Virus record (IMG/VR): IMGVR_UViG_3300002835_000123
From: an uncultured virus (IMG/VR IMGVR_UViG_3300002835_000123)
Lineage: Duplodnaviria; Heunggongvirae; Uroviricota; Caudoviricetes
Strand: one strand, 5' to 3'
Length of the DNA stretch: 64,000 bases
In this document: one piece after another, positions 43,263 to 63,631 of the stretch
How the letters are laid out: every line of letters begins with the position of its first letter
Numbering within the stretch: the stretch's first letter is position 1
Position numbers and translations under genes: made by a program
The notes under the pieces: model-generated
What the model was told of the DNA's origin: nothing
The model's database searches: none
The model's input: the letters and a program-made list of their open reading frames with translations, nothing else

Positions 43263-44519
43263 ATGAAATATCCATTTTTTAACAAAAAAGGTAGACCTAC
43301 ACAATATGAGCAAGGAATATGTAAGAAAATAAATGAAATGCTTAGTGATAAAAAAATATCACAAAATGAAATAGATGAATTTATTAGTAATTATGGACAT
43401 CCTCAATCTACCGAAGAATTAGAAAATTTTTATTCAATTTTAACAGGTGAAGATGCTGAATCTGAAAATTCTGTTAAATATGAAGAAGAATATGAAGAAA
43501 TTGAAGATAGTATAAGTGAAAAAACAAATGAACCTACCATGACAAATAATGATAATCAAAATGAAAGTGGAGTAAATTTTAATCCATTTAGTGAACCTGT
43601 TGTAGAAAGAGAATATACAAAAGGAGCATTTCAATCGCAAGAAGAACAACTTGCAGAAGATGATTTTGGTTTTACTGAAGAAGAAACTCAAAAACCGATA
43701 GATGATATTGAAGATGCAAAAATAGAAGAAGAAATAGAACAAGATATTCCTGAACCACAATTTAATAATACCCAAAGTCAATCAAATTATGGTGGAGAAG
43801 GAGAAGAAGAAGGTGAATTAGGAGAAGGAGAGGAAGATTTAGGTTCTGAAAAGTTAGGAGGAGATAATTTACAAGATTTATCACCTGCACAAAAAAGAAA
43901 ATCAGCAGAAAAAACTGCTGAAGCAATACTAAATATGTATTGTAATTTTGCACCTCTACCATTTAAAAAGTGGGCATCTTTTAATCCAAATCATATTCAA
44001 AAATTAGTTTTCGAAAAGAAAATTGATATGGATATGCAAGTTGAACAAGGTGTTACTATCAGAGATTATATCAATGGAGTTAATGAACAGGTAGAAGAAA
44101 TATTTAAAGTAAGTCAAGAAACAAGAGAAGAAATAAAAGACCCTCTTATTGATGTTTTAATGGAGCAAGAGTTAGCTTTAACGCCTACTCAAAGACTTCT
44201 CATAGCTGTTGGCGGTCATGTTATAACAATGGGTTTTTCTGCATTTCAATTATCACAGAATAATAAACAGGCACTTGAAACATTTGAAAGATTTCAACAA
44301 AATGCAAGTGGAAAAACACAAACATCTAATGATAATACAGAAAAGAGAACAAGACCTACACCTTCTTCACCACAATCAGAACCAATGTCAAAAATGGATA
44401 GACAATCTGTTGAAGAATTAATAAGGCAAATGGAAGGAGATAATGATGATGATGATGATGTTTTGGATAGTATAAATGACCCAAATGTAAGCGTAGATGA
44501 AACTTATGATGAAGAATAA
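43263..44519 (+). CDS. acidic protein with hydrophobic C-proximal segment, directly upstream of ATPase
   Basis: E/D-rich; LLIAVGGHVITMGFSAF. Confidence 0.55.
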   Translation: MKYPFFNKKGRPTQYEQGICKKINEMLSDKKISQNEIDEFISNYGHPQSTEELENFYSILTGEDAESENSVKYEEEYEEIEDSISEKTNEPTMTNNDNQNESGVNFNPFSEPVVEREYTKGAFQSQEEQLAEDDFGFTEEETQKPIDDIEDAKIEEEIEQDIPEPQFNNTQSQSNYGGEGEEEGELGEGEEDLGSEKLGGDNLQDLSPAQKRKSAEKTAEAILNMYCNFAPLPFKKWASFNPNHIQKLVFEKKIDMDMQVEQGVTIRDYINGVNEQVEEIFKVSQETREEIKDPLIDVLMEQELALTPTQRLLIAVGGHVITMGFSAFQLSQNNKQALETFERFQQNASGKTQTSNDNTEKRTRPTPSSPQSEPMSKMDRQSVEELIRQMEGDNDDDDDVLDSINDPNVSVDETYDEE

Positions 44520-44530
44520 ATTCAATTAGA

Positions 44531-45343
44531 ATGAGTTTAAGAGAGCCGATATTGATGTGTGTAACAGGAAAAAAAGGAGTAGGTAAAACTTACACTACCT
44601 TGAAGCACATTGATGATTACACAAAAAACAATAAAAAAACAGGTAAAAAAGCAAGAAAAGTTTTAATTTACGATATTAACATGGAATACACCATGTTTAA
44701 AGCAATTTCAGTAGAGGACATTCCAAGATTCACAAATCAATCAAAAATAGAAGTAAGAAGGGTATTGCCTATATTATCTAATGGTAGAATGGCAGGTCTT
44801 TCAGATATGTTAGAAATATTAAGCACAATAATTGAAAATTACAGAGGTGGTATGTTAATTTTAGAGGATATTAATAGATATTTAATTCAATCTAAAACAA
44901 CAGATGTAATTGGACTTTTAGCAACCAACCGACACAGAGATTTAGATATTATCTGTCATTTTCAATCATTATCAGCACTCGACCCAAGAATGTGGCAAAA
45001 TACAAGTTTTGTTAGATTTCATGCTCAAATAGATGATATAAAAAGATATTCTCAAAGGATTCCTAATTTTGAAATGTTTAAAATAGCACAATGTCTTGTG
45101 GAGTATAAATACTTAAAATTAGGAGATAAAAGATTTTATTGTTTTATTGCTTGTGATGAAAACTATATTGCAGGTAATTTTTCAAAAAAAGACTTTCATG
45201 AGGCTTGTTTAAATTATTTACAACAATATCCAAAAGGAATAAATGAAATACAAAAAAAATTTGGAAGTGGTTTAGATGCAAGGAATAAAGCAATAAAATC
45301 AGTAATTCAAGAGTTTTTTCAAAAATATTATAGAGGAATTTAA
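44531..45343 (+). CDS. FtsK/HerA/A32-type genome-packaging ATPase
   Basis: GKKGVGKT Walker A, LIYD, LILED Walker B, NRHRDLDIICHFQS arginine-finger/Gln sensor; stand-alone 270 aa. Confidence 0.8.
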   Translation: MSLREPILMCVTGKKGVGKTYTTLKHIDDYTKNNKKTGKKARKVLIYDINMEYTMFKAISVEDIPRFTNQSKIEVRRVLPILSNGRMAGLSDMLEILSTIIENYRGGMLILEDINRYLIQSKTTDVIGLLATNRHRDLDIICHFQSLSALDPRMWQNTSFVRFHAQIDDIKRYSQRIPNFEMFKIAQCLVEYKYLKLGDKRFYCFIACDENYIAGNFSKKDFHEACLNYLQQYPKGINEIQKKFGSGLDARNKAIKSVIQEFFQKYYRGI

Positions 45344-45344
45344 A

Positions 45345-46040
45345 ATGGAAAAATATAAAATACTTATAAAATTTGCTTCACGTTCAAGAGAACAAAAATT
45401 CTTTAGTTGCTTAGACAACATATTAAATTATGTTGTGGATAAAGAAAATTTTTGTGTTTTAGTTTCTTTGGACATTGATGATGTGTCTATGTATAATCAA
45501 AACACGTTGAATAAATTATCTACGTATTTGAATAACCATCCAAATAATTTGATTATAAAATTTGCAACAAGTAAAAACAAAATAGATGCAATCAATCGTG
45601 ATGTAAATGAAATTAAGGAAAGATTCAATTTTGATATACTAATTAACTTTTCAGATGATATGCTTTGGACAAAACATGGATTTGATGAAGTAATAAGAGA
45701 AAAATTCAAATTACATTTTCCTGATACAAATGGAAATTTGCATTTCAATGATGGTTATACTAAAGAAAGATTATGCACCATGAGTATAATTGGAAGAAAA
45801 TATTACGACAAATACAACTATATTTATCATCCAAGTTATATTTCGCTTTGGTGTGATAATGAATATACAATAGTTGCAAAAAATCAACAAAAAATGATTT
45901 ATTTTGAAGAAATAATATTTGTTCACAATCATCCATCAAATGTTGGTGGAATAGTAGATGAACAACTTAAAAAAACAGAATCTTTTGCAGAAATAGATTA
46001 TAATAACTTTATGAACAGACAAAAAAATAATTTTCAATGA
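45345..46040 (+). CDS. GT-A fold glycosyltransferase
   Basis: FASRSR, LDIDD, KIDAINRD, NFSDDM, SLWCDNE. Confidence 0.7.
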   Translation: MEKYKILIKFASRSREQKFFSCLDNILNYVVDKENFCVLVSLDIDDVSMYNQNTLNKLSTYLNNHPNNLIIKFATSKNKIDAINRDVNEIKERFNFDILINFSDDMLWTKHGFDEVIREKFKLHFPDTNGNLHFNDGYTKERLCTMSIIGRKYYDKYNYIYHPSYISLWCDNEYTIVAKNQQKMIYFEEIIFVHNHPSNVGGIVDEQLKKTESFAEIDYNNFMNRQKNNFQ

Positions 46041-46681
46041 ATTTTCAAGGACAAAATAGAGAAGATGAATTTGTTTATCAATATTTTAAAAACAAATTTG
46101 GTGAAGAATTTAAAGGAAGCGTTTTAGATATTGGTGCTAATGATGGGGTAACTCTAAGTAATTCATATTTTTTGATTACTCAAGGATGGAAAGGGTATTT
46201 GGTTGAAGCAGGTAAAAATCCATTTTATAAATTAGCTTCTCTGTATCAAAACACTTCAAAAGAAATAGTAAAATGTTATAATTTGGCTTTAGGTCATAAA
46301 AACGAAATTGTTACATTTTATGAAAGTAAAAATTTAATAAATCCAAATGATATAGGTTTAGTATCATCGGCAATTTCAGAAGAAACAAAAAGATGGAGAA
46401 ATGCAGGTGTTGAATATGAAGAATATTCTGTTTTAATGCAAACATTTGATGTTTTTTGTAATCAAAATGAATTGTCTGAAAAAATATTTGATTTTATAAG
46501 TATAGATATTGAAGGATTGGATTGGGAAGTATTGAATCAAATAGATTTAGGTAAATTTGGATGTAAATGTTTGTGTGTAGAATTTAATGGAAAAGAAAAA
46601 GAAAAATACGTTGAATATGCTCTTAAATATGATTTATACCTGTCGGTTCAAAATGCAGAAAATTTAATATTTGTAAAATAA
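46037..46681 (+). CDS. FkbM-family methyltransferase
   Basis: LDIGANDG..SNS, GWKGYLVE, FISIDIEGLD. Confidence 0.88.
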   Translation: MNFQGQNREDEFVYQYFKNKFGEEFKGSVLDIGANDGVTLSNSYFLITQGWKGYLVEAGKNPFYKLASLYQNTSKEIVKCYNLALGHKNEIVTFYESKNLINPNDIGLVSSAISEETKRWRNAGVEYEEYSVLMQTFDVFCNQNELSEKIFDFISIDIEGLDWEVLNQIDLGKFGCKCLCVEFNGKEKEKYVEYALKYDLYLSVQNAENLIFVK

Positions 46682-47358
46682 TGAAACATTGCATAGTTAA
46701 TTTTTCAGATTATAAATTTGCTTTAGGACAGAATAGATTAAGAGAATCTTTAATTCAACAAGGTTATCAAGGTGATATAATTACTTTTAATGAATTTCAT
46801 CAGGTCGGTTCAAAATCACATTTGGAAGTGCCATACCAATTCAAAGTTTTTGCTATTGAAAAAGCAAGACAAATGGGTTATGATGTAATCCTATATTGTG
46901 ATGCTTCTCTATGGGCAATAAAAAATGTAATGCCTGTTATACATTATATTATTGAAAATGGATATTTGTTAGAAAAATGTGGATTTTCTGTTGGTCATTT
47001 TTCAACTGATTTATGTTTAAGTGAATTTGATATTTCAAGAGAAATTGCTTTTTCTATTCCTTTACATTCAGCAGGATTTACAGGATTAAATTTTAGAAAC
47101 GAAATAGCAAATATTTTTTTTGAAAAATGGTTACAACGAGCAAGAGAAGAAAAAACATTCATTGGAGATTGGAATAATAATAGTAGGCAATGTTCGAAAG
47201 ATGAAAGATGTTTGGGTCATAGACATGACCAAACTACTGCTTCTATTATTGCTCATGAGTTACAAATGAACAGAATAAATCCACATTTTATGCAATATAA
47301 TTATGATGGAGTAATTACAAAACAAGAAACAATATTTAATTGCAGGGGAATATGTTAA
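46681..47358 (+). CDS. nucleotide-diphospho-sugar transferase-like protein
   Basis: FKVFAI, ILYCDASLW, HRHDQT motifs. Confidence 0.6.
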   Translation: MKHCIVNFSDYKFALGQNRLRESLIQQGYQGDIITFNEFHQVGSKSHLEVPYQFKVFAIEKARQMGYDVILYCDASLWAIKNVMPVIHYIIENGYLLEKCGFSVGHFSTDLCLSEFDISREIAFSIPLHSAGFTGLNFRNEIANIFFEKWLQRAREEKTFIGDWNNNSRQCSKDERCLGHRHDQTTASIIAHELQMNRINPHFMQYNYDGVITKQETIFNCRGIC

Positions 47359-47367
47359 TAAATTTAT

Positions 47368-47982
47368 ATGAAAAATAAAAAAAATTATTCAAAAGAAGAA
47401 TATATCAAATTTTGGGGAGAAAATGGATATATTGAAACATGGGATGGTCATAAGTATAATTGGTCAGAAGAAATAAAAAATTTAGTATTGAATCAAATTG
47501 GATTTAAAAAAGACAAAGAAGTTTTAGAAATAGGTTGTGGTGCAGGATATTGGACTAAATTTCTTTGTGAAAACTCAAAATATGTTACGGCAATAGACTT
47601 AATACCGAACCCACCTTTGAATGAAAAAAACTTTAGATATATAGAAAATGAAAATTTACAATTCGATTGTAATAAAATAGATAATGAATCTATTGATTTT
47701 GCTTTCTCTTTTGGAGTTTTTTGCCATTTGTCAAAAAGTGCTTGTGAATCTTATTTAAAAGATACTCTTAGAGTTTTAAAAAAAGGAGGAACTGCAATAT
47801 TTATGTATTCAGATGATAAAGGTTTAAAAGAATTTTATAAAGATGAAAATTTTGTTGCATCAAGAATTTATGGTCAATACAATGACTATTCTGACTTTAT
47901 GCCAATTTTAAAAAAATATGATTCTGAATGTAAGAAAATATTAGAATTTAGAGATTTATTAGTTTTAATAACAAAAAAATAA
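47368..47982 (+). CDS. class I SAM-dependent methyltransferase
   Basis: VLEIGCGAG, DFAFSFGVFCHL, RVLKKGG. Confidence 0.88.
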   Translation: MKNKKNYSKEEYIKFWGENGYIETWDGHKYNWSEEIKNLVLNQIGFKKDKEVLEIGCGAGYWTKFLCENSKYVTAIDLIPNPPLNEKNFRYIENENLQFDCNKIDNESIDFAFSFGVFCHLSKSACESYLKDTLRVLKKGGTAIFMYSDDKGLKEFYKDENFVASRIYGQYNDYSDFMPILKKYDSECKKILEFRDLLVLITKK

Positions 47983-48000
47983 ACAAAAAATAAACAAAAA

Positions 48001-48675
48001 ATGAACAACTCACAACTATTGGATATAATAGCAGGTGCTTTATATTCCACAAAAGAAACTCAAATGAATAGTTATAATTTGGGTAAATATGTAGTAGAAA
48101 AAAATATAGAAGGAGATATTATTGAATGTGGAATTGCTATGGCAGGTAATTTTGCATCTATGATTTTAGGTGCTACTTCTTTTCCACAAGGACAGAGCCG
48201 TAAATTTTGGGGTTTTGATAGTTTTGTTGGAATCCAATTAGCAGGTAAAAAAGATACTCAACAAGCAGGTATAGGTGCAATAACACACAATACAGATGTT
48301 CCTTATGAAGATTTGTTGATTAGTAGTGGTATTACATCACATTCAAAACAACAAGTTTTAAATAATTTAAATGCTTGGGGTTTATCAAAATATCAAATTG
48401 AACTTGTTGAGGGATGGGTTCAAAATACTATACCATTAGTTAATGATAGAATAAATAAAATATCTATTTTAAGATTGGATATGGATGTTTACCATCCTAC
48501 AAAATATACCTTAGATATGTGGTGGGATAAAATATCAAATGGCGGAGTTATAATTATTGATGATTGGGCATTAGATGGAGTAAGAACTGCGTGTTACGAA
48601 TTTTTTGAAGAAAAAAATATTTCTCCTGAAATACATACGATACCAAATTCAACACCAACGTATTTTTTCAAGTAA
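48001..48675 (+). CDS. TylF/MycF-family sugar O-methyltransferase
   Basis: EGDIIECG, GFDSFVG, GWVQNT, LRLDMDVY, GGVIIIDD. Confidence 0.88.
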   Translation: MNNSQLLDIIAGALYSTKETQMNSYNLGKYVVEKNIEGDIIECGIAMAGNFASMILGATSFPQGQSRKFWGFDSFVGIQLAGKKDTQQAGIGAITHNTDVPYEDLLISSGITSHSKQQVLNNLNAWGLSKYQIELVEGWVQNTIPLVNDRINKISILRLDMDVYHPTKYTLDMWWDKISNGGVIIIDDWALDGVRTACYEFFEEKNISPEIHTIPNSTPTYFFK

Positions 48676-48685
48676 TTTAAAATTT

Positions 48686-49267
48686 ATGAAATTATCTATA
48701 ACAATAGCATCTGTTAGCATAAGAAAAGATATGCTTGATAATCTTTTAGCTGAATTAAATAAACAAATAGAAGAAAATAATTTAAAAAATGAAGTTGAAA
48801 TATTGGTAGATGATGATGATTCTCGATATTTAGGCACAAAAAGAAAAATGATGTTAGAAAAAGCAAAAGGTTTATTTACTTGTGCTATTGATGATGATGA
48901 TTTTATAAGTTCAGACTATGTTAAATTAATTGTGGAAGCTATAAACAAAGACGAATCAGTTGATTGTTTAGCAATTAATGGAGTTATTACTTTCAATGGT
49001 TTAAATCCTAAAAAATGGTTTATTTCCTGTCATTACGAAGATTGGTATGAGGAAAATGAAATATATTATCGCACACCTAACCATATTTGTCCTATAAAAA
49101 CAGAGTTAGCAAGATTAGGAAATTTTGATGATGTAGCATGGGGAGAAGATTATCCATTTTCGCAAAGAATGAAATCTATTCTGAAAACAGAAACAATAAT
49201 TGAAGAACCTTTGTATTATTATCAATATAGTACAGAAAATTCATTACACGATTACCAAAATAAGTAA
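48686..49267 (+). CDS. GT2-family glycosyltransferase
   Basis: KLSITI, GTKR, IDDDD, NHICP, GEDYPF; ATG 48686 preferred. Confidence 0.8.
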   Translation: MKLSITIASVSIRKDMLDNLLAELNKQIEENNLKNEVEILVDDDDSRYLGTKRKMMLEKAKGLFTCAIDDDDFISSDYVKLIVEAINKDESVDCLAINGVITFNGLNPKKWFISCHYEDWYEENEIYYRTPNHICPIKTELARLGNFDDVAWGEDYPFSQRMKSILKTETIIEEPLYYYQYSTENSLHDYQNK

Positions 49268-49269
49268 AT

Positions 49270-49917
49270 ATGAGTGATAGTAACATTTTTTATGTAGGTG
49301 TTTCAAGGTCAGGAAGTCATTGGCTAAGAATAGTTCTTGAAGAATATATGCAGGGTAAAAGTCCTGTATCTAATTTTATAGCTTGTAAAGATGATATTAA
49401 TGTACTTATGAGCCATTTAAATGATTTTAAAGGAACACATGATATGACACTTGACTTTGAGGCAGAAAATGTTATATACCTTTATAGAAATCCAATAGAT
49501 TGTATTTTTTCTAATTTGAAATACGACCAAACAACTATTGACAATATAGAATTAATAGATAAATATTTAAATATTTGGAATAAACACATTCAAAAATGGG
49601 TGTTCGATGAAAAATTTACAAAAAGAAAAGTAATTCTTTCCTATGAAAATCTAAAAAAAGATTTTGTAAAAGAATTTTCGAAACTCTTAGTGTATCTGAA
49701 TTTAGAAGTAGATGAAAAAAGAATTATTTTGGCAAAGGAAACATATACAAAGAATAAAATAAGAGAAATAGTACACGATAAGAAAGTAATAAATAATGAA
49801 ACAGATTATGAATTACAAAGAGAAAGATTTGTTGATTTGTTTGGTAAATATATTTTTGATAAACTACCTTTAACACATAAAGATATTTGTATATTTCCTG
49901 AAAAAATATTTGGTTAA
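49270..49917 (+). CDS. PAPS-dependent sulfotransferase
   Basis: GVSRSGSHWL (5'-PSB loop), IYLYRNPIDCIFS (3'-PB), LSYENL. Confidence 0.82.
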   Translation: MSDSNIFYVGVSRSGSHWLRIVLEEYMQGKSPVSNFIACKDDINVLMSHLNDFKGTHDMTLDFEAENVIYLYRNPIDCIFSNLKYDQTTIDNIELIDKYLNIWNKHIQKWVFDEKFTKRKVILSYENLKKDFVKEFSKLLVYLNLEVDEKRIILAKETYTKNKIREIVHDKKVINNETDYELQRERFVDLFGKYIFDKLPLTHKDICIFPEKIFG

Positions 49918-49918
49918 A

Positions 49919-50512
49919 ATGAAACATTTGTCTATTTTGATTCCTACTTTACCTTTGAGAATTGATAGTTATGCTTCTTTAATTAAAAATATTTCAAATC
50001 AAATTAAAAAAAACAACTTAGAGGATAAAGTTCAAATATTAACTTTTTTAGATACAAAAGAATTATCTGTTGGTGAAAAAAGAAATATATTATTGAGAAG
50101 TAGTATAGGAAAGTATATTTGTTTTATAGACGATGATGATATAATATCAGAGGACTACCTTCAAGAAATATTTAATGCTATTCCTCATGATGCAGATTGT
50201 ATAACATTTTTGGGAGAATACATAGAACAGGGTTTTAAAAAAGATTTTGTTATAAGCACAATGAATAGAGATAACTACAATGAACCTAATTGTTTTTATA
50301 GATTGCCTAATCATTTGTGTCCTGTAAAAAGAGAAATAGCTTTAAGTAGTTTATTTTCAAATAAAAACTATGGAGAAGATTCTGATTATGCGTCAAAAAT
50401 TAATAAATATATTAAGAATGAGTATCATATTCGAAAAAAACTTTATTTCTATATGTATGACGATGCTAAAAGTCAAACATCACCTACTAATGCTAACAAA
50501 AAAATATACTAA
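49919..50512 (+). CDS. GT2-family glycosyltransferase
   Basis: LSILIPT, GEKRN, CFIDDDD, NHLCP, GEDSDY. Confidence 0.82.
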   Translation: MKHLSILIPTLPLRIDSYASLIKNISNQIKKNNLEDKVQILTFLDTKELSVGEKRNILLRSSIGKYICFIDDDDIISEDYLQEIFNAIPHDADCITFLGEYIEQGFKKDFVISTMNRDNYNEPNCFYRLPNHLCPVKREIALSSLFSNKNYGEDSDYASKINKYIKNEYHIRKKLYFYMYDDAKSQTSPTNANKKIY

Positions 50513-50760
50513 TGGAAAAAATTGAATATATAAAAGTAATGGGTATTGGGTTTGAAGGTTTAAGCGAAATTGGTAATTACATAGTAATTTGGAATGAATC
50601 TAATGACACTAAAAAATTAGATAAAAAGGAAAAAAAGTTTGTTAGTTTGAACGAAGCAAAAATATTTTTTGAATCCTTGTGTTACGATAAGGCAATATTA
50701 AATGAAAATATGCCTGAAGATAATAATGTATTAGATTGTTATGTAAAAACAAAATGTTAA
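50512..50760 (+). CDS. hypothetical protein
   Basis: Overlapping stop/start with neighbour. Confidence 0.5.
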   Translation: MEKIEYIKVMGIGFEGLSEIGNYIVIWNESNDTKKLDKKEKKFVSLNEAKIFFESLCYDKAILNENMPEDNNVLDCYVKTKC

Positions 50761-50779
50761 ATTTGAAAAAATAATTATT

Positions 50780-51277
50780 ATGAAAAACGAGCATCAACAA
50801 CAAGTTGCAATGGCAACCGAAGTAGGTAAATTGTTACCTGAAACAAAAGAGAAAGTAGAATACTACAAAGAAATCATAAAAGCAGAAGCAGAACTAATTG
50901 ATAGTTATGAAAAAAGGCAATCTAAATGGTGGATTTCATCAGTAAATAAAGCAAAAGAAAAATCAGAAATAATTAAGTTAAGAAATTCAATCATTCAAAA
51001 AAAGAAAGTATTTGAATCATATTTAAAAAGAAAAAATCAGTACGAGAAATGGTTGGATGAAATGGCTATTGAAGTAAATGATAAATTTGATAATGTAATT
51101 GCTATTGCTAAAGAAATACCATTTTCTTCTAATCCAAGACTTCACGATGGTATTGCAAAATGGGAAGAATTGTCAGAACAAAATTCTTTGCAAGACAAGG
51201 TGGAAATGTATTTGTTTATGAAGAATGAAATAAAAAACTACGAGAAATTCAATAAGAAAAGACTTTTTGTTGACTAA
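50780..51277 (+). CDS. hypothetical coiled-coil protein
   Basis: Helical, K/E-rich ORF. Confidence 0.5.
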   Translation: MKNEHQQQVAMATEVGKLLPETKEKVEYYKEIIKAEAELIDSYEKRQSKWWISSVNKAKEKSEIIKLRNSIIQKKKVFESYLKRKNQYEKWLDEMAIEVNDKFDNVIAIAKEIPFSSNPRLHDGIAKWEELSEQNSLQDKVEMYLFMKNEIKNYEKFNKKRLFVD

Positions 51278-51287
51278 CTTTATATTT

Positions 51288-51881
51288 ATGCTGAATGAAT
51301 TTAATCAAATATATTTTAAAGAAATTTCCAATAGAATAGAAAAACAACAAATACAATTTGATTTAGCAAGAATACATTCTCATAGACACATATCAAGGTG
51401 TTTAGTATACAGCGAATGGATATTAAAATGCTTAAAACACGAATTGGATTATGAAAATAATTTAGATTTATTATTCGCAATTTCATTTCATGACATAGGT
51501 AGAATACAAGAAGGTATTGATAATACTAATTATCAGTCATCTTTAATTGCCCAAGAAGAAATGACAAAAATGAATGTAGATACAAGAATCATAGAATCAA
51601 CAAAAAAATTAATTCAGGAAAAAGATAATTCTGATAATTACGATATTAAAAGAATGATTTTACATGATGTTGATTGTTTTGATATTATGCGACCAAGTAC
51701 AGGTAGAGGTGGTATAATTGGATTCAACAAAGATTTTTTATGTTTATTTAAATCTAATCAAAACAATTATCAAAATGAACTTATTAGTAAGTGTTTTAAC
51801 CTAATCAACATAACTGAAAATGAATCATTTGAAAATGTTGATTGTTTAAAAAATATTTTGAAATCAAAATTAAATGAGTAG
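51288..51881 (+). CDS. HD-domain phosphohydrolase
   Basis: HSHRHISR...FHDIGR...HDVDCFDIMR. Confidence 0.75.
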   Translation: MLNEFNQIYFKEISNRIEKQQIQFDLARIHSHRHISRCLVYSEWILKCLKHELDYENNLDLLFAISFHDIGRIQEGIDNTNYQSSLIAQEEMTKMNVDTRIIESTKKLIQEKDNSDNYDIKRMILHDVDCFDIMRPSTGRGGIIGFNKDFLCLFKSNQNNYQNELISKCFNLINITENESFENVDCLKNILKSKLNE

Positions 51882-53549: not shown

Positions 53550-53550
53550 T

Positions 53551-54525: not shown

Positions 54526-54605
54526 TTGAAACAAAATTGCCAAGTGGTAGGCAGTTTTACCACAGAAATAGATTTAATTTAGTATTTAATAACAAAAAAA
54601 AGTAA

Positions 54606-55370: not shown

Positions 55371-55403
55371 TAACATCACATACCGAGAAAAATAATATAT
55401 AGG

Positions 55404-55433
55404 AAAGGCAAACCATAATGTTTGCCTTTTCTT
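55404..55433 (+). terminator. intrinsic terminator after candidate capsid gene
   Basis: AAAGGCAAAC-CATAAT-GTTTGCCTTT-TCTT. Confidence 0.8.
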
Positions 55434-55450
55434 ATTTAAAAATTAACTAT

Positions 55451-55906
55451 ATGAAAGATAGAATATCATTACAAGAATTAATTGCTTTAAATAACACGCC
55501 AAAAGCAAAAGCATTGGTAGTAAAATATGGTTATTCACCTGCAAGAAATTATGATGATTTGACTTATAAGTTAATGAGATTTACAAAAGACTTTCAAGAG
55601 GAGGCTTTAAAAGAATTGGCTAATATTCATCCACACAAAGATTTAATACTAAATTATAATCAATTTGAATTGCCAAAAAAAATAGAAGAAAATGAAAAAA
55701 GTAATGATGATATGTGTCAATGTAGATTATGTCGTCAGAAAAGATTACAAAACCAAATGAATTATGCAAATTTTGAAGGTGAAGTAACGCAAACAAATGA
55801 TAAAAACGAAAAAACAAGCAATCCGTTAAAGGATTTTGCTCCCACAATATTAATTGCTACAATGACCTCATTTATTGTAGTTGGATTATTAGTAAATGTA
55901 AAATGA
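55451..55906 (+). CDS. C-terminally anchored membrane protein (putative virion)
   Basis: HPHKDLIL, CQCRLC, YANFEG, C-terminal TM; ATG 55451 preferred since 55418 is inside the terminator. Confidence 0.65.
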   Translation: MKDRISLQELIALNNTPKAKALVVKYGYSPARNYDDLTYKLMRFTKDFQEEALKELANIHPHKDLILNYNQFELPKKIEENEKSNDDMCQCRLCRQKRLQNQMNYANFEGEVTQTNDKNEKTSNPLKDFAPTILIATMTSFIVVGLLVNVK

Positions 55907-56400
55907 AAGGAAGCGGTATAGACATATCACATCAATTTATTTTATTAGAGGATTCTCCTATATTAAATATTCAAGGAAATAATGTAGAAGAAAGCGATAA
56001 AAAATTAGTAAAAGGAACTATTGTTGAAGGTTCTCTAAAAACAAGGATTGTAAAATTAGGAGATTTAAAAAGACCATATAAATTTGTTGAACTAAAAAAT
56101 AAAAAAGGTTATTTATCTCCAAGAGTTGTGAATATTTATATTGGAAAATTTGCTAATTTAGAGGGTGAATTAACCAATTCAGAAAATAATGGTGCTGATG
56201 TGAGTTTAAATATGTATCAAAAGCCACCAAAAAAGAAAAGAGTAAAAGATATTTTTATAAATTATGGACTTCCAATAGCAGGAGGTTTTATAGGATATAA
56301 AATAGCTAAAAGAATGGAAGCAGATGATAAAAAAACATTAGGTTTTGTAGTGTTTTTTGCATTAATTGGTTTGATTCCAAGATATATGTTAAACAAATAA
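55903..56400 (+). CDS. membrane protein, SH3-like N-terminal region, two C-terminal TMs
   Basis: KGTIVEG...FVELKNKKGYL; FANLEG; two hydrophobic segments. Confidence 0.6.
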   Translation: MKGSGIDISHQFILLEDSPILNIQGNNVEESDKKLVKGTIVEGSLKTRIVKLGDLKRPYKFVELKNKKGYLSPRVVNIYIGKFANLEGELTNSENNGADVSLNMYQKPPKKKRVKDIFINYGLPIAGGFIGYKIAKRMEADDKKTLGFVVFFALIGLIPRYMLNK

Positions 56401-56410
56401 AAAATAAATT

Positions 56411-57088
56411 ATGATTTACGTGGAAAATGATTTTTATTCGAATTTCAACGCAGTAAGCAAGTCAAATGATGAAATGGCTATGCAGTCAATTTTAGTAGAC
56501 CAAATATCAAATTTGATTGCATACAACAGAGAAGAAGTATTAGATTTACTTAGGAAATCAGAAATAAAACTACCTCCTAAACCAAAAAATAAAGATATTG
56601 TAAAAGCAATAGTTCAAAATCTAAAAACTAACAAGAAATTGGTTATTGGACTTGCTTATTTAATTGCAAAAAACAATGATTTACTTCAAGAACAAACGAA
56701 AAGAGGTAGACCGCAAGAAATGAAATCATCTTTTGAAGATAAAACAAAAACTACAACGGATAAAAAAGAAAAAAAACCTGTTGATTGGAACAGAACTCTT
56801 GATGCAGTTAATGTAGTTGGTGGTTCAATTTCAGTATTTGCAGATACTCTAACAGGAGTTAAGCAAAGTAGTTTAGAACAGCAATTAAATTCTGCAACTC
56901 AAAGCAAATCACCTGAAGATTTAGCAAGGGAACAAGCAGAAAAATTAGAAGCAGACAAAAAGGCAAGAAGAAAAAGAAATACTAAAATAGCAGTAGGGGT
57001 TCTTTTACTTGCAGGTGTAGGAGTTGGAGTTTATTTTGCATGGAAAAAAGGATGGTTTGCTAAAAAATCAGCACCCATAGAAGCGTAA
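56411..57088 (+). CDS. C-terminally anchored membrane protein (putative virion)
   Basis: IAVGVLLLAGVGVGVYFAWKK. Confidence 0.65.
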   Translation: MIYVENDFYSNFNAVSKSNDEMAMQSILVDQISNLIAYNREEVLDLLRKSEIKLPPKPKNKDIVKAIVQNLKTNKKLVIGLAYLIAKNNDLLQEQTKRGRPQEMKSSFEDKTKTTTDKKEKKPVDWNRTLDAVNVVGGSISVFADTLTGVKQSSLEQQLNSATQSKSPEDLAREQAEKLEADKKARRKRNTKIAVGVLLLAGVGVGVYFAWKKGWFAKKSAPIEA

Positions 57089-57143
57089 TTATATAGTTTA
57101 TACCTTAAAATAATTAAAATAAAAACAAACAAAACAAAAAAAA

Positions 57144-57704
57144 ATGGAAGATTTAAACCTTGTTGATGATAGTTTTGAATTATGGCACAATTCAGAAGGA
57201 GAAAGAGCCTTGTATAACAAAATCGTTAAAACATATCCAAGTGAGGATAATATGTTTGATGTATTAAATTTTGAAGGTGAAGAAAATTCTTCAACCGAAC
57301 AAAAGACTACTGAAAAACAAAAATTAGATTTAGATAAGTTAGGAGAATCAATAGTTACAACGGCAGGTGCAGTTGGTTCTGTTTCAACTACAATTCAAGC
57401 CTTTAAAGGTGATGGAACTAAAAAGGCACAGCGATTAGCGGTTAAAGATGTATGTGGTAAAAAACCAACAGCATTTAGCAAAAAAGCAAGAAAAGAGGAA
57501 TACAAAAAATGTATTACAGACTATCAAGCAAAAAAAATGGCAATGTTAGATGCACAAACAAAAAAATCAGAAGAAGTTGTAATCAAATCAGATGAAACAA
57601 AAACAGGTATGAGTACAACTACAAAAGTTTTAATAGGAGTTGGTGTACTTGCTTTAATTGGAGGTGTAATTTATTTTGTTCGTAGAGGTGCGTCTGCAAA
57701 ATAA
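57144..57704 (+). CDS. C-terminally anchored membrane protein (putative virion)
   Basis: HNSEG, LNFEG, CGKKP...YKKC, VLIGVGVLALIGGVIYFVRR. Confidence 0.65.
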   Translation: MEDLNLVDDSFELWHNSEGERALYNKIVKTYPSEDNMFDVLNFEGEENSSTEQKTTEKQKLDLDKLGESIVTTAGAVGSVSTTIQAFKGDGTKKAQRLAVKDVCGKKPTAFSKKARKEEYKKCITDYQAKKMAMLDAQTKKSEEVVIKSDETKTGMSTTTKVLIGVGVLALIGGVIYFVRRGASAK

Positions 57705-58240
57705 TGGCAAAAAAAGGTGTTTACAGATTACTATTTTCTATTGAAGCACCCGATTTAACAAAATCGGAAGTTGCAGGTAAATTAATTACCCAACTTTTCA
57801 ATGAAGATGAAATAGTGATGGGTGAATATTACAAAAAGGAAAATATACTTGTAGATGGTCGTTATGTAATACCATTAGCGTATGTAGAAAAGGAAGATAA
57901 ACTTCCATATTTAAAAAAAGATAGTTCGTTTGACGAAACGATAGATAGATTAAAACAACAATCACTTATTTTAAGTGAAAAAGAAAAGGAAAGACTAAAT
58001 GATATTGGAAATAGTATCAAAAGTCAAATAGAAGGAAAAAAAGCACAACAAATCAAAGCTGAAACAAAGGCAATGAAAAATGGTGCATTATTAGGACTTG
58101 GTATTGGTATTATTACGGCTTTGTACTTAAAAAGAAACATTTGGCTAATTTCATTAATAGGTTTATCTGTTGGTGGATATGTAGCACACAAGATAGTTAA
58201 AGCAAAACAGGGAAATAACGAAGTAGAACCAATAGCTTAA
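57704..58240 (+). CDS. membrane protein with two C-terminal glycine-rich TMs
   Basis: GALLGLGIGIITALYL; LISLIGLSVGGYVA. Confidence 0.65.
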   Translation: MAKKGVYRLLFSIEAPDLTKSEVAGKLITQLFNEDEIVMGEYYKKENILVDGRYVIPLAYVEKEDKLPYLKKDSSFDETIDRLKQQSLILSEKEKERLNDIGNSIKSQIEGKKAQQIKAETKAMKNGALLGLGIGIITALYLKRNIWLISLIGLSVGGYVAHKIVKAKQGNNEVEPIA

Positions 58241-58242
58241 AA

Positions 58243-58554
58243 ATGAAAGAATTTGATTTAGATGTTTATAGTGGATTTCAAGATGAAATTACTACGACTG
58301 AAAATAAAAATGTAAAAAAAAATACAACCTCAAGTGAACCTCCAAAATGGCAGGAGAGTTTAGGTAAACTAACAGATTTTGTAAAAGAATATGGAGGAGC
58401 ATATTCAGAACAGAAAGCACCTGTTTATTCTGAAGGTAAAAAAGTGCGTAAGTTTGGTATGCACCCATTAGTATTTGTTGCTGTATCTTTAGGACTTGTA
58501 ATAGCAGGTTCTATAACTTTAGTATATTTAGGTAGAAAAAAAACTATTAAATAA
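58243..58554 (+). CDS. small C-terminally anchored membrane protein
   Basis: FGMHPLVFVAVSLGLVIAGSITLVYLGRKK. Confidence 0.65.
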   Translation: MKEFDLDVYSGFQDEITTTENKNVKKNTTSSEPPKWQESLGKLTDFVKEYGGAYSEQKAPVYSEGKKVRKFGMHPLVFVAVSLGLVIAGSITLVYLGRKKTIK

Positions 58555-58555
58555 C

Positions 58556-60220
58556 ATGGAAACAAAAAAAATATCAAAAGATACCATGTTGCGTGAAATG
58601 AAAAAACGCAAAAGTGCCGTTCAGAAAAAAATGATGAAAACTGCTGATAGGATTCGTCTTATTGAAGATTTCAAAAAACAGACTATTGGTAAAGATGTAA
58701 CTTTCAAAGAGTATTTGAAAGCAAAAAATATTGATATAAATAAGTTTTTTGCACCAATGGGATATTATACAGGTGCAGAAAAAGTAGTAAGTAATGATAA
58801 AGAAAATTTACTTCTTGTTTATTGTCAAGGAATGGAGTTTAATCCAAAGGCAGGTTATCATACCCCATCAAGAAAAATAGTTTCTGAAAAAGACCACAAT
58901 GATGTCATACAAAGTAATTTAGGAATGACATGGAATCCAAAATTAAGTCAATATTTTCCAACTACAATTTTTGATACAAATGCCTATTCAAGTGCAGAAG
59001 GTTCAGGAGATACAGGAATTGATATTATGGGCGGTTTAAGGGTAGAAGATTTTTCTAACTTGAACAATAAATCTTATGATGGTGAGGATTACACTTGTTT
59101 TGTCCAAGATTTACTAATTGAAGAATATGATAATTTAGAGGGAGAATTAGATTTGATTGAGGGTTCTATTGGTTCTCTTTATTCTGATTTTGAGGGAGAA
59201 GAAGAAAAAAGTCAAGGAGGAAAAAATTTAAGATGTAGAACAATATGTACTTCTAAACACGCATTTAATAAAAACAAAAGACAAGAATGTTTTGATGAAT
59301 GTGATAAGAAATTTAAACCTTCTGAAAAACAAGAAGAACGTAGAGCAGAGAGAGAAGAAAGAAAAGAATCAAGAAAAGAATTTCGTGAGGATAAAAAGAA
59401 TTGTAAAGAAAGACTACGCAAAGGAGAGATAAATCAAAAACAATATAGAGATTGTCTTAAAGCAGAGAGAAAAGAAAAGAAAAAAGGAGTAAAAGAAGCA
59501 GGAGGAACATTTTTTGTTCGTGCATGGAGAAGCACAGCTAAAGTATTTCCTATTACACTTGTAGGAAGAAATGGAGCATTGTTTATGATAGGTGAAAATG
59601 CTTTCGGTTTTGGAACAAGAGTAGCACCTGCATTACTTTCTGATGAAGAAGCTAAAAAAATATTTAAACCTGAATCAATCAAAAAATCTAAACAAAGTTG
59701 GTTGAAATTACAAAAAGCATGGAAGAATTTAGGTGGTGATGTTGATGCTCTTAAAAAATCTATTCTTAAAGGCTATAAGAAAAAAGCTATGAAAATAGAA
59801 AAAAAATCAAATTTTGAAGGTTCTGAATATACTTATTCATATCAAATAGATTCTGATTATTCTAATTTCTTTGAGCCTGTATCAACAGGAACTTTAGTAA
59901 TAGCAGGAACAAGTGTAGTTACAAGTTTAATTCCTTTAATTGGTAATAATGATAAAGACCCATTCGTTGAAGGACAAACGCCTACTGATTATAAAGAATC
60001 TTTGAGAAGTGGTGATGTAGATAACATACCAACACAAGGAGAAAATACACCAATAGTAGACCCAAATACAGGTGATTGGATTGACCCAAATACAGGTAAA
60101 AAAATAGACCCAACAACAGGTAAATATGATGATAACATATTAGGAATGAACAAATGGGTAGCGATAGGATTAGGAGTAGGTGCATTAGTAGGAGTATATT
60201 ATTTAACGAAGAAAAAATAG
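58556..60220 (+). CDS. large C-terminally anchored membrane protein with several S/N-F-E-G motifs
   Basis: YSSAEG, YDNLEG, YSDFEG, KSNFEG; Cys/basic region; DPNTG x3; ILGMNKWVAIGLGVGALVGVYYLTKKK. Confidence 0.65.
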   Translation: METKKISKDTMLREMKKRKSAVQKKMMKTADRIRLIEDFKKQTIGKDVTFKEYLKAKNIDINKFFAPMGYYTGAEKVVSNDKENLLLVYCQGMEFNPKAGYHTPSRKIVSEKDHNDVIQSNLGMTWNPKLSQYFPTTIFDTNAYSSAEGSGDTGIDIMGGLRVEDFSNLNNKSYDGEDYTCFVQDLLIEEYDNLEGELDLIEGSIGSLYSDFEGEEEKSQGGKNLRCRTICTSKHAFNKNKRQECFDECDKKFKPSEKQEERRAEREERKESRKEFREDKKNCKERLRKGEINQKQYRDCLKAERKEKKKGVKEAGGTFFVRAWRSTAKVFPITLVGRNGALFMIGENAFGFGTRVAPALLSDEEAKKIFKPESIKKSKQSWLKLQKAWKNLGGDVDALKKSILKGYKKKAMKIEKKSNFEGSEYTYSYQIDSDYSNFFEPVSTGTLVIAGTSVVTSLIPLIGNNDKDPFVEGQTPTDYKESLRSGDVDNIPTQGENTPIVDPNTGDWIDPNTGKKIDPTTGKYDDNILGMNKWVAIGLGVGALVGVYYLTKKK

Positions 60221-60226: not shown

Positions 60227-61042
60227 ATGGTTATTGAAATACCATCAAATTATTATCCATTTCAACTCAATATGTTTGTTGAATCTAAAGACTTAATTAA
60301 ATTAAGAATAGTAGCGTATGACCCAAACAAACCTTCAACAAAATATTTGGATAGGGTAAGTAAATTAAATGGTAAAAGAAAATACGAATTAAAATTTCCT
60401 GTTGCACCACAAAGATTAAAGATAGCCGTATTTAATGTAGCTAATGGAAGTTTACCTTATGGTGAGGATAGTTCATTTGAATTAGCAGATTTAAAAGTAG
60501 ATAGAATAAAAGAGTATGATGTTTGGTGGAACGCAGATACTCGAAACTTCTACAAATTTGCAGTAGAATTTAGTCAAAATGCAAGTATTCTTTCAGCAGG
60601 AGAATCAAAACCACATATTTACAGAAGTGATGATGGTAAATTTACTATTGATTATTATAACAATATAATTGATAAAAAAAGTAATAAAAAACTAACAACA
60701 CCTGCAAGGATAGGACACAATACAGGAATTATTGAGGTAAGTAAATCAAAGTTCATGAATTATAGTGTGCCTATGCGTATCTTAATTTTAATGCACGAAT
60801 ACGCACACAAATACCTTAATCCAAAAATAGGTAGGGAAATATCTTATGAAACAGGTGCAGATATTCAAGCACTTTATGTTTATTTAGGTAAAGGATGGTC
60901 GCCTTATGAAGCACATAAAACATATTTACAAGTATTTAGAAATGCCAATAATAAATCAAATCATAAGAGATATAAAATAATTGATGATTTCATTAAAAAA
61001 TATGAAAATGGACAAGTTTCAAATGAAATAAAAATGAAATAA
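60227..61042 (+). CDS. zincin-type metallopeptidase
   Basis: ILMHEYAHKY (HExxH) with downstream ETGAD. Confidence 0.75.
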   Translation: MVIEIPSNYYPFQLNMFVESKDLIKLRIVAYDPNKPSTKYLDRVSKLNGKRKYELKFPVAPQRLKIAVFNVANGSLPYGEDSSFELADLKVDRIKEYDVWWNADTRNFYKFAVEFSQNASILSAGESKPHIYRSDDGKFTIDYYNNIIDKKSNKKLTTPARIGHNTGIIEVSKSKFMNYSVPMRILILMHEYAHKYLNPKIGREISYETGADIQALYVYLGKGWSPYEAHKTYLQVFRNANNKSNHKRYKIIDDFIKKYENGQVSNEIKMK

Positions 61043-63631
61043 ATGTCTGAACCAATAAATATAATAGACATAAACGAAAATGAAAGTGTTGCACAATTCA
61101 ATTTTGAAAACAACACATCTTCTCCTATTGCTATAAATTTATTTGATACCGCATCTTTACAGACAATTCCGACAAGTGGTAGCACTCAAACTTCCTATAC
61201 ATCTTCAGGTGATTTGTTACCATCTTTACCACCAAGTTTATTGGAATTTAATCCAACAAATAATGTAATTTTATCAGCAGACCCACTTACTGATTCATAT
61301 AGAGTAATTAACACACTCACAAATACAACTAACAATTCGTTTGATAACTCTATTGGTTTTAATGCCCAAGTTAATGCAATAGTCATACAAACAGATGGTA
61401 AAATCCTTGTAGGCGGTGCATTTGTAGGATATAAAGGACTAACAGAAAATCGTATTATACGATTAAACAGCGATGGCACAAAAGACCTAACTTTTGATAA
61501 CTCTATTGGTTTTAATGCCCAAGTTAATGCAATAGTCATACAAACAGATGGTAAAATTCTTGTAGGCGGTGCATTTACAACATATAAAGGACTAACAGAA
61601 AATCGTATTATACGATTAAACAGCGATGGCACAAAAGACCTAACTTTTGATAACTCTATTGGTTTTAATAATCAAGTTTTTTCAATAGCCATTCAAACAG
61701 ATGGTAAAATACTTTTAGGCGGTGCATTTATAACATATAAAGGACTTGCAGAAGTTCGCATCATACGATTAAACAGCAATGGCACAAAAGACCTAACTTT
61801 TGATAACTCTATTGGATTTGATAATGTTACTCGTAAATTAGCCATACAAACAGATGGTAAAATCCTTGTAGGTGGTCAATTTACATTATACAAAGGACTA
61901 ACAGAAAATCGTATCATACGATTAAACAGCGATGGCACAAAAGACCTAACTTTTGATAACTCTATTGGTTTTAATAGTTTTGTTAATAGAAACGCAATAG
62001 CCATACAAAACGATGGTAAAATCCTTGTAGGCGGTGCATTTGTAGGATATAAAGGACTAACAGAAAATCGTATTATACGATTAAACAGCGATGGCACAAA
62101 AGACCTAACTTTTGATAACTCTATTGGTTTTGATGATGAAGTAAATTTAATATCAATACAAAATGATGGTAAAATCCTTGTAGGCGGTGCATTTACAACA
62201 TATAAAGGGGTATCGGAAAATCGTATAATACGATTAAACAGCAATGGCACAAAAGACCTAAGTTTTGATAACTCTATTGGTTTTAATAATGATTTAATTG
62301 ATTTAGCCATACAAACAGATGGTAAAATCCTTGTAGGCGGTTCATTTACAACATACAAAGGTTATACTAACAATTTTATAATTAATTTAGATACGAATGG
62401 TAATACTAATTCAGTATTACAAGTAGGAAATAATTCTTCTGATTTAGCATATTGTAGCATCAACAATACTTTTTACACCTGTCCAATAGCAGGTATAAAT
62501 AATGATATTAGTGAAATAAGTGGGGATGGTCAAATTAAATTAACTAATATAATATTGCCTTCGCCTACACAAGTTTGTGAGCAAGTAGAATACAATGTTT
62601 CTAATAATTCTATGTATTATTTAGTGGCAAATACATTTCCAACACCACATGATATTTTAGTATTAGATTGCAGTACAAACACATTTACAGCAACTATTAA
62701 TATGCCTTCAGCGTTGATTAGTGGTTTGTCAAATGTTACCGCAACTAATGATATGTATTTTTTTGATGGTACATCAGGATTGTTACAAAAAATAAATTGC
62801 ACATCAAATACCATAGTTTTAGTAAATATTACACTACCAAACATAAGTGTATCGGTAAGTTCTATTCAATACAACGCATCAACTAATTTAATATATGTAA
62901 TGAGTTCTGCTACAAATATTGTAGATGTTGTTGATGCAAGTACAGACACATATTTAACATCAATTACAATACCTGCTATATATAACTTTAGTCCATTTTT
63001 ATCTTCAATAAATACAACTACAAATCAGTTATTTATTTCAGATAGTAATGCACTAAACCAAAAGCAGTTTGCAGTTATTGATTGTCAGAGTAATACATTT
63101 AATGCAGTACAATCTTTAGGAATAGGAGTAGGAGCAACGTATGGAGTTATGTACAATTCCTACAATCAGCAAATGTATGTTAGTGGTTCATTATTTTCAA
63201 TCGTTACCTTTATAGCAACACCATTCTTTATTGGAGGTACAAATTACAACTATTTTGTAAATAGTTTAACCAACGAACCTATATCAGTAGACAAAATACG
63301 GATTATTACAATAAGCCAAATACAATTATATAACCAAGTACAATTCACGAAAATAGATTCAAATGGTAATCAAATATTCTTCCCTGAATTTCCAATTACT
63401 AAAGTTGATTCATACCAAGAACAAGGTAATATATCTATATTAAAATTGAATGGTTTAATATTCGATGGAAGAACTTACATAAATGGTTATGTAATCAACC
63501 CAAATCAAGTAGTAAGTTTTGAAGTATATTATAGGCAATTAGACAGAGATAATATTAAAAGTTTGTTTGAAAAACTAACCTTTAAAAAACAATTATTGAA
63601 AGGTCTTTTTGATGATGCAGTTGAGTTATAA
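61043..63631 (+). CDS. capsid-protein paralog with inserted delta-60-type and second beta-propellers (candidate vertex/spike protein)
   Basis: IQTDGKILVGG.F...RIIRLNSDG..D.TF repeats; N- and C-terminal segments align by eye with 54606-55370. Confidence 0.7.
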   Translation: MSEPINIIDINENESVAQFNFENNTSSPIAINLFDTASLQTIPTSGSTQTSYTSSGDLLPSLPPSLLEFNPTNNVILSADPLTDSYRVINTLTNTTNNSFDNSIGFNAQVNAIVIQTDGKILVGGAFVGYKGLTENRIIRLNSDGTKDLTFDNSIGFNAQVNAIVIQTDGKILVGGAFTTYKGLTENRIIRLNSDGTKDLTFDNSIGFNNQVFSIAIQTDGKILLGGAFITYKGLAEVRIIRLNSNGTKDLTFDNSIGFDNVTRKLAIQTDGKILVGGQFTLYKGLTENRIIRLNSDGTKDLTFDNSIGFNSFVNRNAIAIQNDGKILVGGAFVGYKGLTENRIIRLNSDGTKDLTFDNSIGFDDEVNLISIQNDGKILVGGAFTTYKGVSENRIIRLNSNGTKDLSFDNSIGFNNDLIDLAIQTDGKILVGGSFTTYKGYTNNFIINLDTNGNTNSVLQVGNNSSDLAYCSINNTFYTCPIAGINNDISEISGDGQIKLTNIILPSPTQVCEQVEYNVSNNSMYYLVANTFPTPHDILVLDCSTNTFTATINMPSALISGLSNVTATNDMYFFDGTSGLLQKINCTSNTIVLVNITLPNISVSVSSIQYNASTNLIYVMSSATNIVDVVDASTDTYLTSITIPAIYNFSPFLSSINTTTNQLFISDSNALNQKQFAVIDCQSNTFNAVQSLGIGVGATYGVMYNSYNQQMYVSGSLFSIVTFIATPFFIGGTNYNYFVNSLTNEPISVDKIRIITISQIQLYNQVQFTKIDSNGNQIFFPEFPITKVDSYQEQGNISILKLNGLIFDGRTYINGYVINPNQVVSFEVYYRQLDRDNIKSLFEKLTFKKQLLKGLFDDAVEL
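61340..62405 (+). repeat. coding tandem repeat, 7 units of about 153 bp (51-aa delta-60-type repeat)
   Basis: TTTGATAACTCTATTGG at 61340, 61493, 61646, 61799, 61952, 62111, 62264. Confidence 0.95.

Follow-up and report, generated by a model that had tools for sequence, protein, structure and literature searches.

A candidate virion-assembly module of a large, probably non-tailed and membrane-lined Bacteroidota virus in 64 kb of uncultured viral DNA

What kind of particle is built by a viral genome that carries a stand-alone packaging-type ATPase, a jelly-roll-type protein and a run of small membrane proteins? The question is raised by a 64-kb stretch of DNA (hereafter the window) from an uncultured virus, IMG/VR record IMGVR_UViG_3300002835_000123, which has 27.5% G+C, genes nearly all on the plus strand and a tRNA count of zero. 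The locus in question is the last 20 kb, and the preceding 43 kb hold replication and conflict cargo. A preliminary description made from the letters alone had read it as the morphogenesis module of a large tailless, membrane-containing virus; every element on its list was found in the window, and the reading gains support from the jelly-roll-type fold of the capsid candidate and from tailed-phage hallmark genes not being found. We consider it probable that positions 42.8–63.6 kb are the virion-assembly module of a large dsDNA bacterial virus, non-tailed, probably infecting lake Bacteroidota, probably membrane-lined, and equipped with jelly-roll virion proteins and a packaging ATPase of the B204 type. 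Comparisons draw on four related contigs from three collections, all read whole: G001 (102 kb) and G002 (97 kb) from IMG/VR, G004 (68 kb), and contig C131 of G003 (148.5 kb), binned in a metagenome-assembled genome (MAG).

The jelly-roll protein and its paralogs

The jelly-roll core is found in the products of these genes of the module (aa, amino acids):
54606–55370, plus strand: jelly-roll-type protein, 254 aa, candidate major capsid (or penton) protein, from predicted fold and family profile
61043–63631, plus strand: spike-like protein, 862 aa, with seven DUF5122 beta-propeller repeats (PF17164, E 1.7e-90, seven stretches) followed by a beta-rich region

The 254-aa protein consists of an acidic disordered N-terminal arm, a beta core (residues 60–220) and a basic C-terminal tail. 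Its AlphaFold model, built from 106 sequences, has a mean pLDDT of 86, rising to ~98 over residues 60–220, and forms one beta-sandwich, with the family core at ~residues 55–210, consistent with the beta-rich, single-core candidate of the preliminary description. Examined by AlphaFold and structure searches, as that description had proposed, the candidate shows a jelly-roll-type fold. The matches to known structures were weak. Foldseek of the model against the PDB reached E 3e-3 at best, BFVD returned 17 matches at E ≤ 1e-3, mostly capsid proteins, and in a structure search independent of Foldseek 12 of the top 20 rows were capsid or vertex proteins of icosahedral viruses (GFLV, PR772, HFTV1 turret, FLiP, CPMV, phiCjT23, PBCV-1, AYVV, EhV-201, BPMV, STIV A223 and Banna virus). 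Because CBM, TNF-like, nucleoplasmin and peptidase-associated sandwiches score equal to these capsid rows, the model places the protein in the jelly-roll fold class and stops short of a specific kinship to any capsid family. The PDB yielded nothing usable to sequence or profile searches, the Atlas model was poor (pLDDT 0.35) and its structural list was left aside, and searches with PF09018 and PF04451 returned zero matches but are uninformative, their controls having been silent or below cut-off.

Several of the structural matches are penton-base proteins, and for this reason a penton role is kept as a possibility; within the reading as a large non-tailed virus, our estimate tips slightly beyond even towards the 254-aa protein being the major capsid protein. 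Its family is large, with 349 homologs in a word-indexed search (the 120 listed being 66–82% identical) and 666 clusters at 50% identity in an exhaustive search. When the window is compared with G003, no other protein is as well conserved, with 66% identity against 51% for the next. In metatranscriptomes from two studies, the only real pieces (219–492 nt, no mismatches) fall within 54638–55383, in the jelly-roll gene, the other pieces across the 20-kb module being 17–25 nt long. These pieces are contigs in which DNA carry-over is possible, and gaps elsewhere in the module are no evidence of silence; the pattern hints weakly that no other transcript of the module is as abundant as that of the jelly-roll gene.

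The preliminary description had further proposed that the spike is a paralog of the capsid candidate, and the family profile of the 254-aa protein (A1) does match residues 731–832 of the 862-aa protein (E 1.1e-10), where the C-terminal part holds a copy of the jelly-roll core (nt 63233–63538). The spike varies among relatives, at 23–58% identity. Two long minus-strand open reading frames (ORFs) within its gene, 61195–61632 and 61876–62358, are repetitive shadows of the DUF5122 region and most probably not genes. A second small paralog of ~205 aa occurs in G001 and G002 (E 1e-15 to 1e-16), far from the first, and none lies in the window. With G003 included, each of the three genomes has one paralog of ~255–280 aa and one of ~205 aa (the latter matching at E 1e-15 to 1e-17), and G003 encodes six proteins with a jelly-roll core. 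So many core-bearing proteins imply that the domain serves in more than one virion role, and the two small paralogs would fit the two-capsid-protein scheme of sphaerolipovirus-type viruses.

Tandem cores are present among the 150 best family representatives, with two back-to-back in nine (317–488 aa) and three in one. Members of this kind include P0128, P0134, P0135, P0149, P0179, P0182 and P0235, in which the duplication is still legible in sequence, and they offer a rare sequence-level view of a possible origin of double jelly-roll capsid proteins. Just past the window end, close relatives encode a protein of ~327 aa directly after the spike (L037:14215–15198 and orthologs, alignment A5). 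We weighed whether it might be a double jelly-roll capsid protein in disguise and decided against this, since it has an N-terminal transmembrane (TM) helix and a long Lys/Arg-rich helical body; its role may instead be to connect membrane and DNA or to determine length.

The candidate packaging ATPase and the membrane-protein operon

The other features of the module are as follows:
44531–45343, plus strand: stand-alone FtsK/HerA-superfamily ATPase, 270 aa, B204/A32-like candidate packaging motor (Walker A GKKGVGKT)
43263–44519, plus strand: acidic protein, 418 aa, net charge −58, directly upstream of the ATPase, without a P-loop
42802–43257, plus strand: helix-turn-helix protein, 151 aa, DnaA C-terminal-like (PF08299, E 4.6e-9), heading the conserved block
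54362–54391, plus strand: candidate Bacteroidota-type promoter with a conserved box, TTTG (54362–54365), 18 nt, TAnnTTTG (54384–54391)
54418–54525, plus strand: single-pass membrane protein, 35 aa, the operon's first gene, conserved with third-position changes in 7/7 relatives
55418–60220, plus strand: seven consecutive tail-anchored membrane proteins (162, 165, 225, 186, 178, 103 and 554 aa), each with a C-terminal hydrophobic segment
60227–61042, plus strand: HExxH protein, 271 aa, candidate zincin-type metallopeptidase, from motif and conservation

The A32/HerA-type ATPase of the preliminary description is present, at 44531–45343 and not in the ORF with which the proposed module had begun (43263–44519), which has no P-loop. 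It stands alone: no fused form of 474–2000 aa was found, a negative that the search tool itself notes as weak evidence. Among the 50 structural matches listed, its predicted structure scores highest against STIV2 B204 (value 18.7, root-mean-square deviation 2.6 Å, 187 of 208 residues), with STIV B204 at 17.5, the DndH C-terminal domain and HerA at 16.0, VirB4 at 14.6 and FtsK at 12.3, and there is no terminase among the 50. Judged by the model, the closest fold among the matches listed is thus that of B204, the packaging NTPase of the membrane-containing viruses STIV and STIV2, and the 270-aa protein has the character of an FtsK/HerA-superfamily packaging ATPase of the A32/P9/B204 kind. PHROG gives it a weak 'terminase large subunit' label (E 9.2e-6), which we read as a match at the level of the P-loop because it spans only profile positions 324–483 of 555. 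Against PDB sequences there was no single-sequence match, and the profile reaches only HerA (E 0.05). The family was not found in G001 or G002, which could reflect incompleteness or a different motor.

The acidic protein matched no family in Pfam, PHROG or NCBIfam, and it has orthologs directly upstream of the ATPase in G003 (42% identity over 251 aa) and G004 (24% over 187 aa), with a conserved IPEP and SPxQKRKxAEKTA region; it is possibly a packaging accessory. The region of this ORF and the ATPase gave zero matches to GenBank phages by blastn and tblastn. The helix-turn-helix protein has an ortholog at the equivalent position in G003 (34% over 151 aa).

The head of the jelly-roll operon carries the box TAnnTTTG, which we take to be the Bacteroidota −7 promoter element. 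It is invariant in 7/7 aligned relatives within the 356-nt region upstream of the jelly-roll gene, and in the window and each of G001–G004 one such box precedes the small TM ORF by 34–113 nt. Taken over genes in general, the box is weakly enriched upstream of genes in the window (14% against 6%) with no enrichment in G001 or G002, and the promoter evidence is restricted to the conserved box at the operon head. In each of the five genomes, Shine-Dalgarno motifs precede 1–4% of genes, a frequency no higher than that of the internal control. At the level of sequence, the conserved box and the lack of Shine-Dalgarno sites both favour the Bacteroidota host that the preliminary description had named; MAG labels conflict (Parvularculaceae for G003, Bacteroidia for an 8-kb contig) and were not relied on. 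In fifteen lake-water DNA runs, 94% or more of the window's sampled words are found.

A TM ORF of 30–45 aa occupies the place of the 35-aa gene in each of G001–G004. The gap that separates this ORF from the jelly-roll gene contains an inverted repeat, GTGGTA..TACCAC at 54542–54563, which may be an attenuator or RNA-stability element. A C-terminal hydrophobic segment is present in 7/7 ORFs of 55418–60220 against 4/58 other window ORFs (Fisher p 4.7e-7); together with the conserved 35-aa ORF this gives eight TM proteins, the minimum that had been proposed from the letters. The block between the jelly-roll and HExxH genes is TM-rich in 12/12 relatives examined. We use the eight TM proteins beside the jelly-roll gene as a proxy, and only as a proxy, for virus-encoded internal-membrane proteins. 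The predicted peptidase corresponds to the HExxH protein, in which H190, E191 and H194 and the downstream E208 and D212 are invariant in 5/5 orthologs, making it a candidate on sequence grounds. Its identity is 47–50% in G001–G003 and 31% in G004; no Pfam, PHROG or NCBIfam family matched it, and an Atlas match to a DUF4344 metallopeptidase (0.87) serves as a lead only.

Tailed-phage genes, relatives and alternative readings

No terminase, portal or tail gene had been recognised in the 64 kb when only the letters were read. Pfam and PHROG scans of 53 window ORFs likewise gave none save two labels, the weak one on the ATPase and a 'portal' PHROG label that falls on a NUDIX domain (E 6e-5). The PHROG scans extended to 126 ORFs of G002, 147 of the 183 of G003:C131, 85 of G004 and, in close relatives, 30 ORFs beyond the spike; neither there nor in the window did they detect a family for terminase, portal, HK97 capsid, sheath, tube or baseplate. 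G001 was covered by six-frame Pfam hallmark searches and BLAST. Six-frame searches with PF03237, PF03354, PF05065 and PF04860 (Terminase_6N, TerL_ATPase, Phage_capsid and Phage_portal) gave 0 matches in G001, G002, G004 and C131; the same searches did respond elsewhere in G003's MAG, where further contigs gave an HK97 capsid at 307 bits and a weak match to terminase, and in 3–5 of 14 control genomes. HK97 capsid, terminase, portal and tail genes, which the preliminary description had named as refuting its reading, were found neither in the window nor in the related contigs of 68, 97 and 148.5 kb or the downstream flanks of close relatives. Matches to families labelled 'tail' were lytic transglycosylase or peptidase domains only, and in G004 the family label 'virion structural protein' fell to a single C-terminal domain. 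Since the jelly-roll proteins of the compared genomes are 53–66% identical, a shared terminase, portal or capsid protein of normal size should have surfaced; in an all-against-all comparison of G001–G004, the only conserved protein above 350 aa was a helicase.

G003 is syntenic with window positions 42254–63631, and a metagenome scan with the 271-aa protein found 29 loci, with the same gene order in 8/8 long loci examined; a 100%-identical metagenome contig stops ~440 bases beyond the 271-aa gene. Only three contigs of the lineage were found in IMG/VR: scans with three distant or tandem-core family members gave no further IMG/VR relative, and a tighter alignment gave only two known contigs. 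Three hallmark proteins had no tblastn match among 50,697 GenBank phage records. No contig has terminal repeats. At 64 kb for the window and 68, 97, 101, 102 and 148.5 kb for the relatives' contigs, none of them closed, sizes lie outside the range of ~9–44 kb known for prokaryotic jelly-roll viruses, as tabulated in a 2018 review (PMC6260650), and genomes of the lineage would be at least 97–148.5 kb.

Several observations weigh against the reading as a large non-tailed, membrane-lined virus, and they point in different directions. The contigs are all open-ended, with CheckV completeness of 53–84% for the three from IMG/VR, G001 lies outside the PHROG annotation, the ATPase bears its weak terminase label, lytic domains match families labelled tail or baseplate, and the record carries an automatic Uroviricota label; these points speak for a tailed phage (Caudoviricetes) whose hallmark genes are too diverged or outside the sequences, the ATPase and jelly-roll proteins being accessory. 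We regard such a phage as improbable, given zero hallmark matches in ~480 kb of five genomes with controls that responded, no conserved protein of terminase, portal or capsid size among genomes whose jelly-roll proteins are so similar, an ATPase fold that is B204/HerA-like along its whole length, and 'tail' labels confined to transglycosylase and peptidase domains. A non-viral origin, as a large plasmid or conjugative-type element in which the ATPase is a HerA/VirB4-like transfer or defence protein and the jelly-roll and membrane proteins are surface or secretion parts, draws on other facts: VirB4 and HerA are among the structural matches, the element is known from genes alone with no particle seen, and conjugative elements, too, carry polyvalent proteins, ParB and SSB (PMC5512222). 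It strikes us as more improbable still. The general Pfam and PHROG scans turned up no relaxase or other type IV secretion family, the 270-aa ATPase is about one third the length of the matched VirB4 chains (661–783 aa), relatives carry endolysin, holin-like and spanin-like genes as well as numerous homing endonucleases, and three relatives sit in IMG/VR.

A milder alternative accepts the non-tailed virus and changes the part played by the 254-aa protein, which could be a penton or other virion protein. It would then be a penton base, vertex or receptor-binding subunit, as is PRD1 P31 with its paralog in spike P5, and either a different jelly-roll paralog or some unrecognised protein would form the true shell, or else the particle would be non-icosahedral. 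We think this unlikely, though less so than the two readings above: the 254-aa protein is the most conserved of the module while the spike varies widely, its gene opens the structural operon, and we saw no conserved beta-rich competitor of capsid size, the ~327-aa product encoded past the spike in relatives being a basic membrane protein. That its gene alone in the module has real RNA contigs, in two studies, argues weakly in the same direction. Both the tailless shape and the internal membrane of the preferred large virus are features that we infer.

On the reading as a large non-tailed virus, assembly might proceed as follows. The Bacteroidota-type promoter would drive an operon for the tiny membrane protein, the jelly-roll protein and the tail-anchored membrane proteins. 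The membrane proteins would tag a patch of host membrane; jelly-roll subunits, with the second paralog of ~205 aa encoded elsewhere in relatives, would build a shell round the marked patch. The spike may sit at the vertices via or beside its jelly-roll domain, its beta-propeller binding the host, and the ATPase and acidic protein encoded just upstream would drive DNA through one vertex into the preformed particle. The HExxH protein could work in maturation or cell-wall penetration, and the neighbouring transferase island may put glycans on virion proteins.

Cargo genes and comparison with known viruses

Further genes lie between the ATPase and the jelly-roll operon:
45345–52931, plus strand: transferase island with glycosyltransferases, three methyltransferases, a sulfotransferase, an ART-PolyVal protein and unknowns (Pfam and PHROG matches)
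52932–54249, minus strand: two glycosyltransferase-like genes, divergent from the jelly-roll operon (PF00535, E 3e-11; phrog_1574, phrog_34859)

The island is present in G003 and close relatives and absent from this place in G004, where the ATPase adjoins the jelly-roll gene; we therefore take it for an insertion into a core ATPase/jelly-roll module. The glycosyltransferase-like gene beside the jelly-roll gene (53551–54249) is kept in G001–G003 and 8/8 close relatives, and its neighbour (52932–53549) occurs in G002, G003 and the same eight close relatives but not in G001. Genes of a sulfated and methylated glycan toolkit are found at 826–2197 and 45345–54249, including an APS kinase (PF01583, E 1e-13), a cytidylyltransferase, a sulfotransferase (49270–49917), several GT2-type glycosyltransferases and three methyltransferases, one of the TylF O-methyltransferase type. 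G002 also has homologs of the APS kinase, the cytidylyltransferase and a sulfotransferase.

The first 43 kb encode SSB, the APS kinase and cytidylyltransferase, NUDIX, a ParB-like domain and polyvalent proteins, a class described for phages and conjugative elements (PMC5512222). The 'jumbo-phage-like cargo' of the preliminary description holds in so far as polyvalent proteins are present, while no jumbo-phage marker was seen. Proteins of 1189, 956 and 162 aa account for the three ART-PolyVal ADP-ribosyltransferase domains of the polyvalent cargo (9197–26516 and 52443–52931), which also includes one NUDIX and one ParB_N-like domain and an SNF2 helicase/DarB-like protein of 1620 aa. Five large acidic ORFs at 27935–41031 (771, 395, 1268, 1212 and 634 aa; net charge −18 to −130) matched no Pfam, PHROG or NCBIfam family, and checks for RNA-polymerase, P-loop and zinc motifs were without result; G003 (1160 and 1350 aa) and G004 (706 and 1774 aa) also have giant ORFs at the equivalent place ahead of the ATPase, their sequence barely conserved. 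G002 (L009–L013) and G004 (L027–L030) carry many homing endonucleases (GIY-YIG, HNH), thymidylate synthase, RNase H, primase-helicase and RecT, and PHROGs recognised no DNA polymerase family in G002, G003 or G004.

Among known systems, B204 of STIV and STIV2 (Turriviridae) is the solved A32/P9-type packaging ATPase to which the window ATPase compares, the latter having an extra C-terminal helical region (residues 219–270). These viruses differ in their archaeal host, as against a bacterial one here, and the STIV genome is several times smaller. Chloroviruses such as PBCV-1 are large, have a jelly-roll capsid and a membrane, and encode their own glycosylation enzymes; the likeness, which we draw as an analogy only, is that a ~9-kb transferase island here abuts the capsid-candidate gene. 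PRD1 and PR772 (Tectiviridae) and PM2 (Corticoviridae) have double jelly-roll major capsid proteins, whereas the window candidate has a single core. Salisaeta, the host genus of SSIP-1, belongs to the Bacteroidota. SSIP-1 itself is tailless and membrane-containing with two types of major capsid protein, according to two reviews (PMC6260650, PMC6356626). In the 2018 table it is the largest bacterial entry (44 kbp, T=49, 'single jelly roll?'), above PRD1 (15 kbp), PM2 (10 kbp) and FLiP (9 kb), which bears out, as far as that table goes, the size contrast with known viruses drawn in the preliminary description (PMC6260650). Its record has 43,788 bp and 57% G+C, against at least 64 kb (97–148.5 kb in relatives) and 27.5% here, and it shows no detectable relation to the lineage: profiles A1, A2 and A3 reached best E values of 0.97–4.2, with no BLASTP match at E ≤ 1e-3. 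Sphaerolipovirus-type viruses (P23-77, HCIV-1) have two small single jelly-roll shell proteins, an A32-type ATPase and an internal membrane, as two papers summarise (PMC12643093, PMC12642351). Their genomes of 16–31 kb are far smaller than those here, the second paralog of the present lineage lies outside the window, and no sphaerolipovirus capsid chain is among the listed structural matches of the 254-aa protein.

With contigs of ~150 kb, the lineage is more than threefold larger than any phage of that build known in culture. The literature covered, which left out most subscription journals, gave no account of a large phage without a tail. In excerpt, a 2026 PNAS review of virus gigantism mentions no large prokaryotic example and discusses gigantism in jelly-roll-capsid viruses as a feature of eukaryotic viruses (PMC13598248). 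We propose, tentatively and at somewhat less than even confidence, that these are the first large (100–150 kb or more) non-tailed, membrane-lined bacterial viruses, a widespread lake and ocean Bacteroidota lineage of family rank or higher that detection pipelines have largely missed. Their big capsids would be made of small single jelly-roll subunits, tandem double and triple forms being living intermediates of the single-to-double transition, and they would possess a glycan, sulfation and methylation toolkit of their own, as chloroviruses do. If so, the contrast between 666 clusters of the capsid-candidate family at 50% identity and three IMG/VR contigs with zero GenBank phages marks a blind spot. 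A common bacterial lineage of 100–150 kb would also fill the prokaryotic gap, with large jelly-roll capsids having evolved on prokaryotic hosts as well as on eukaryotic ones, and would make that question testable.

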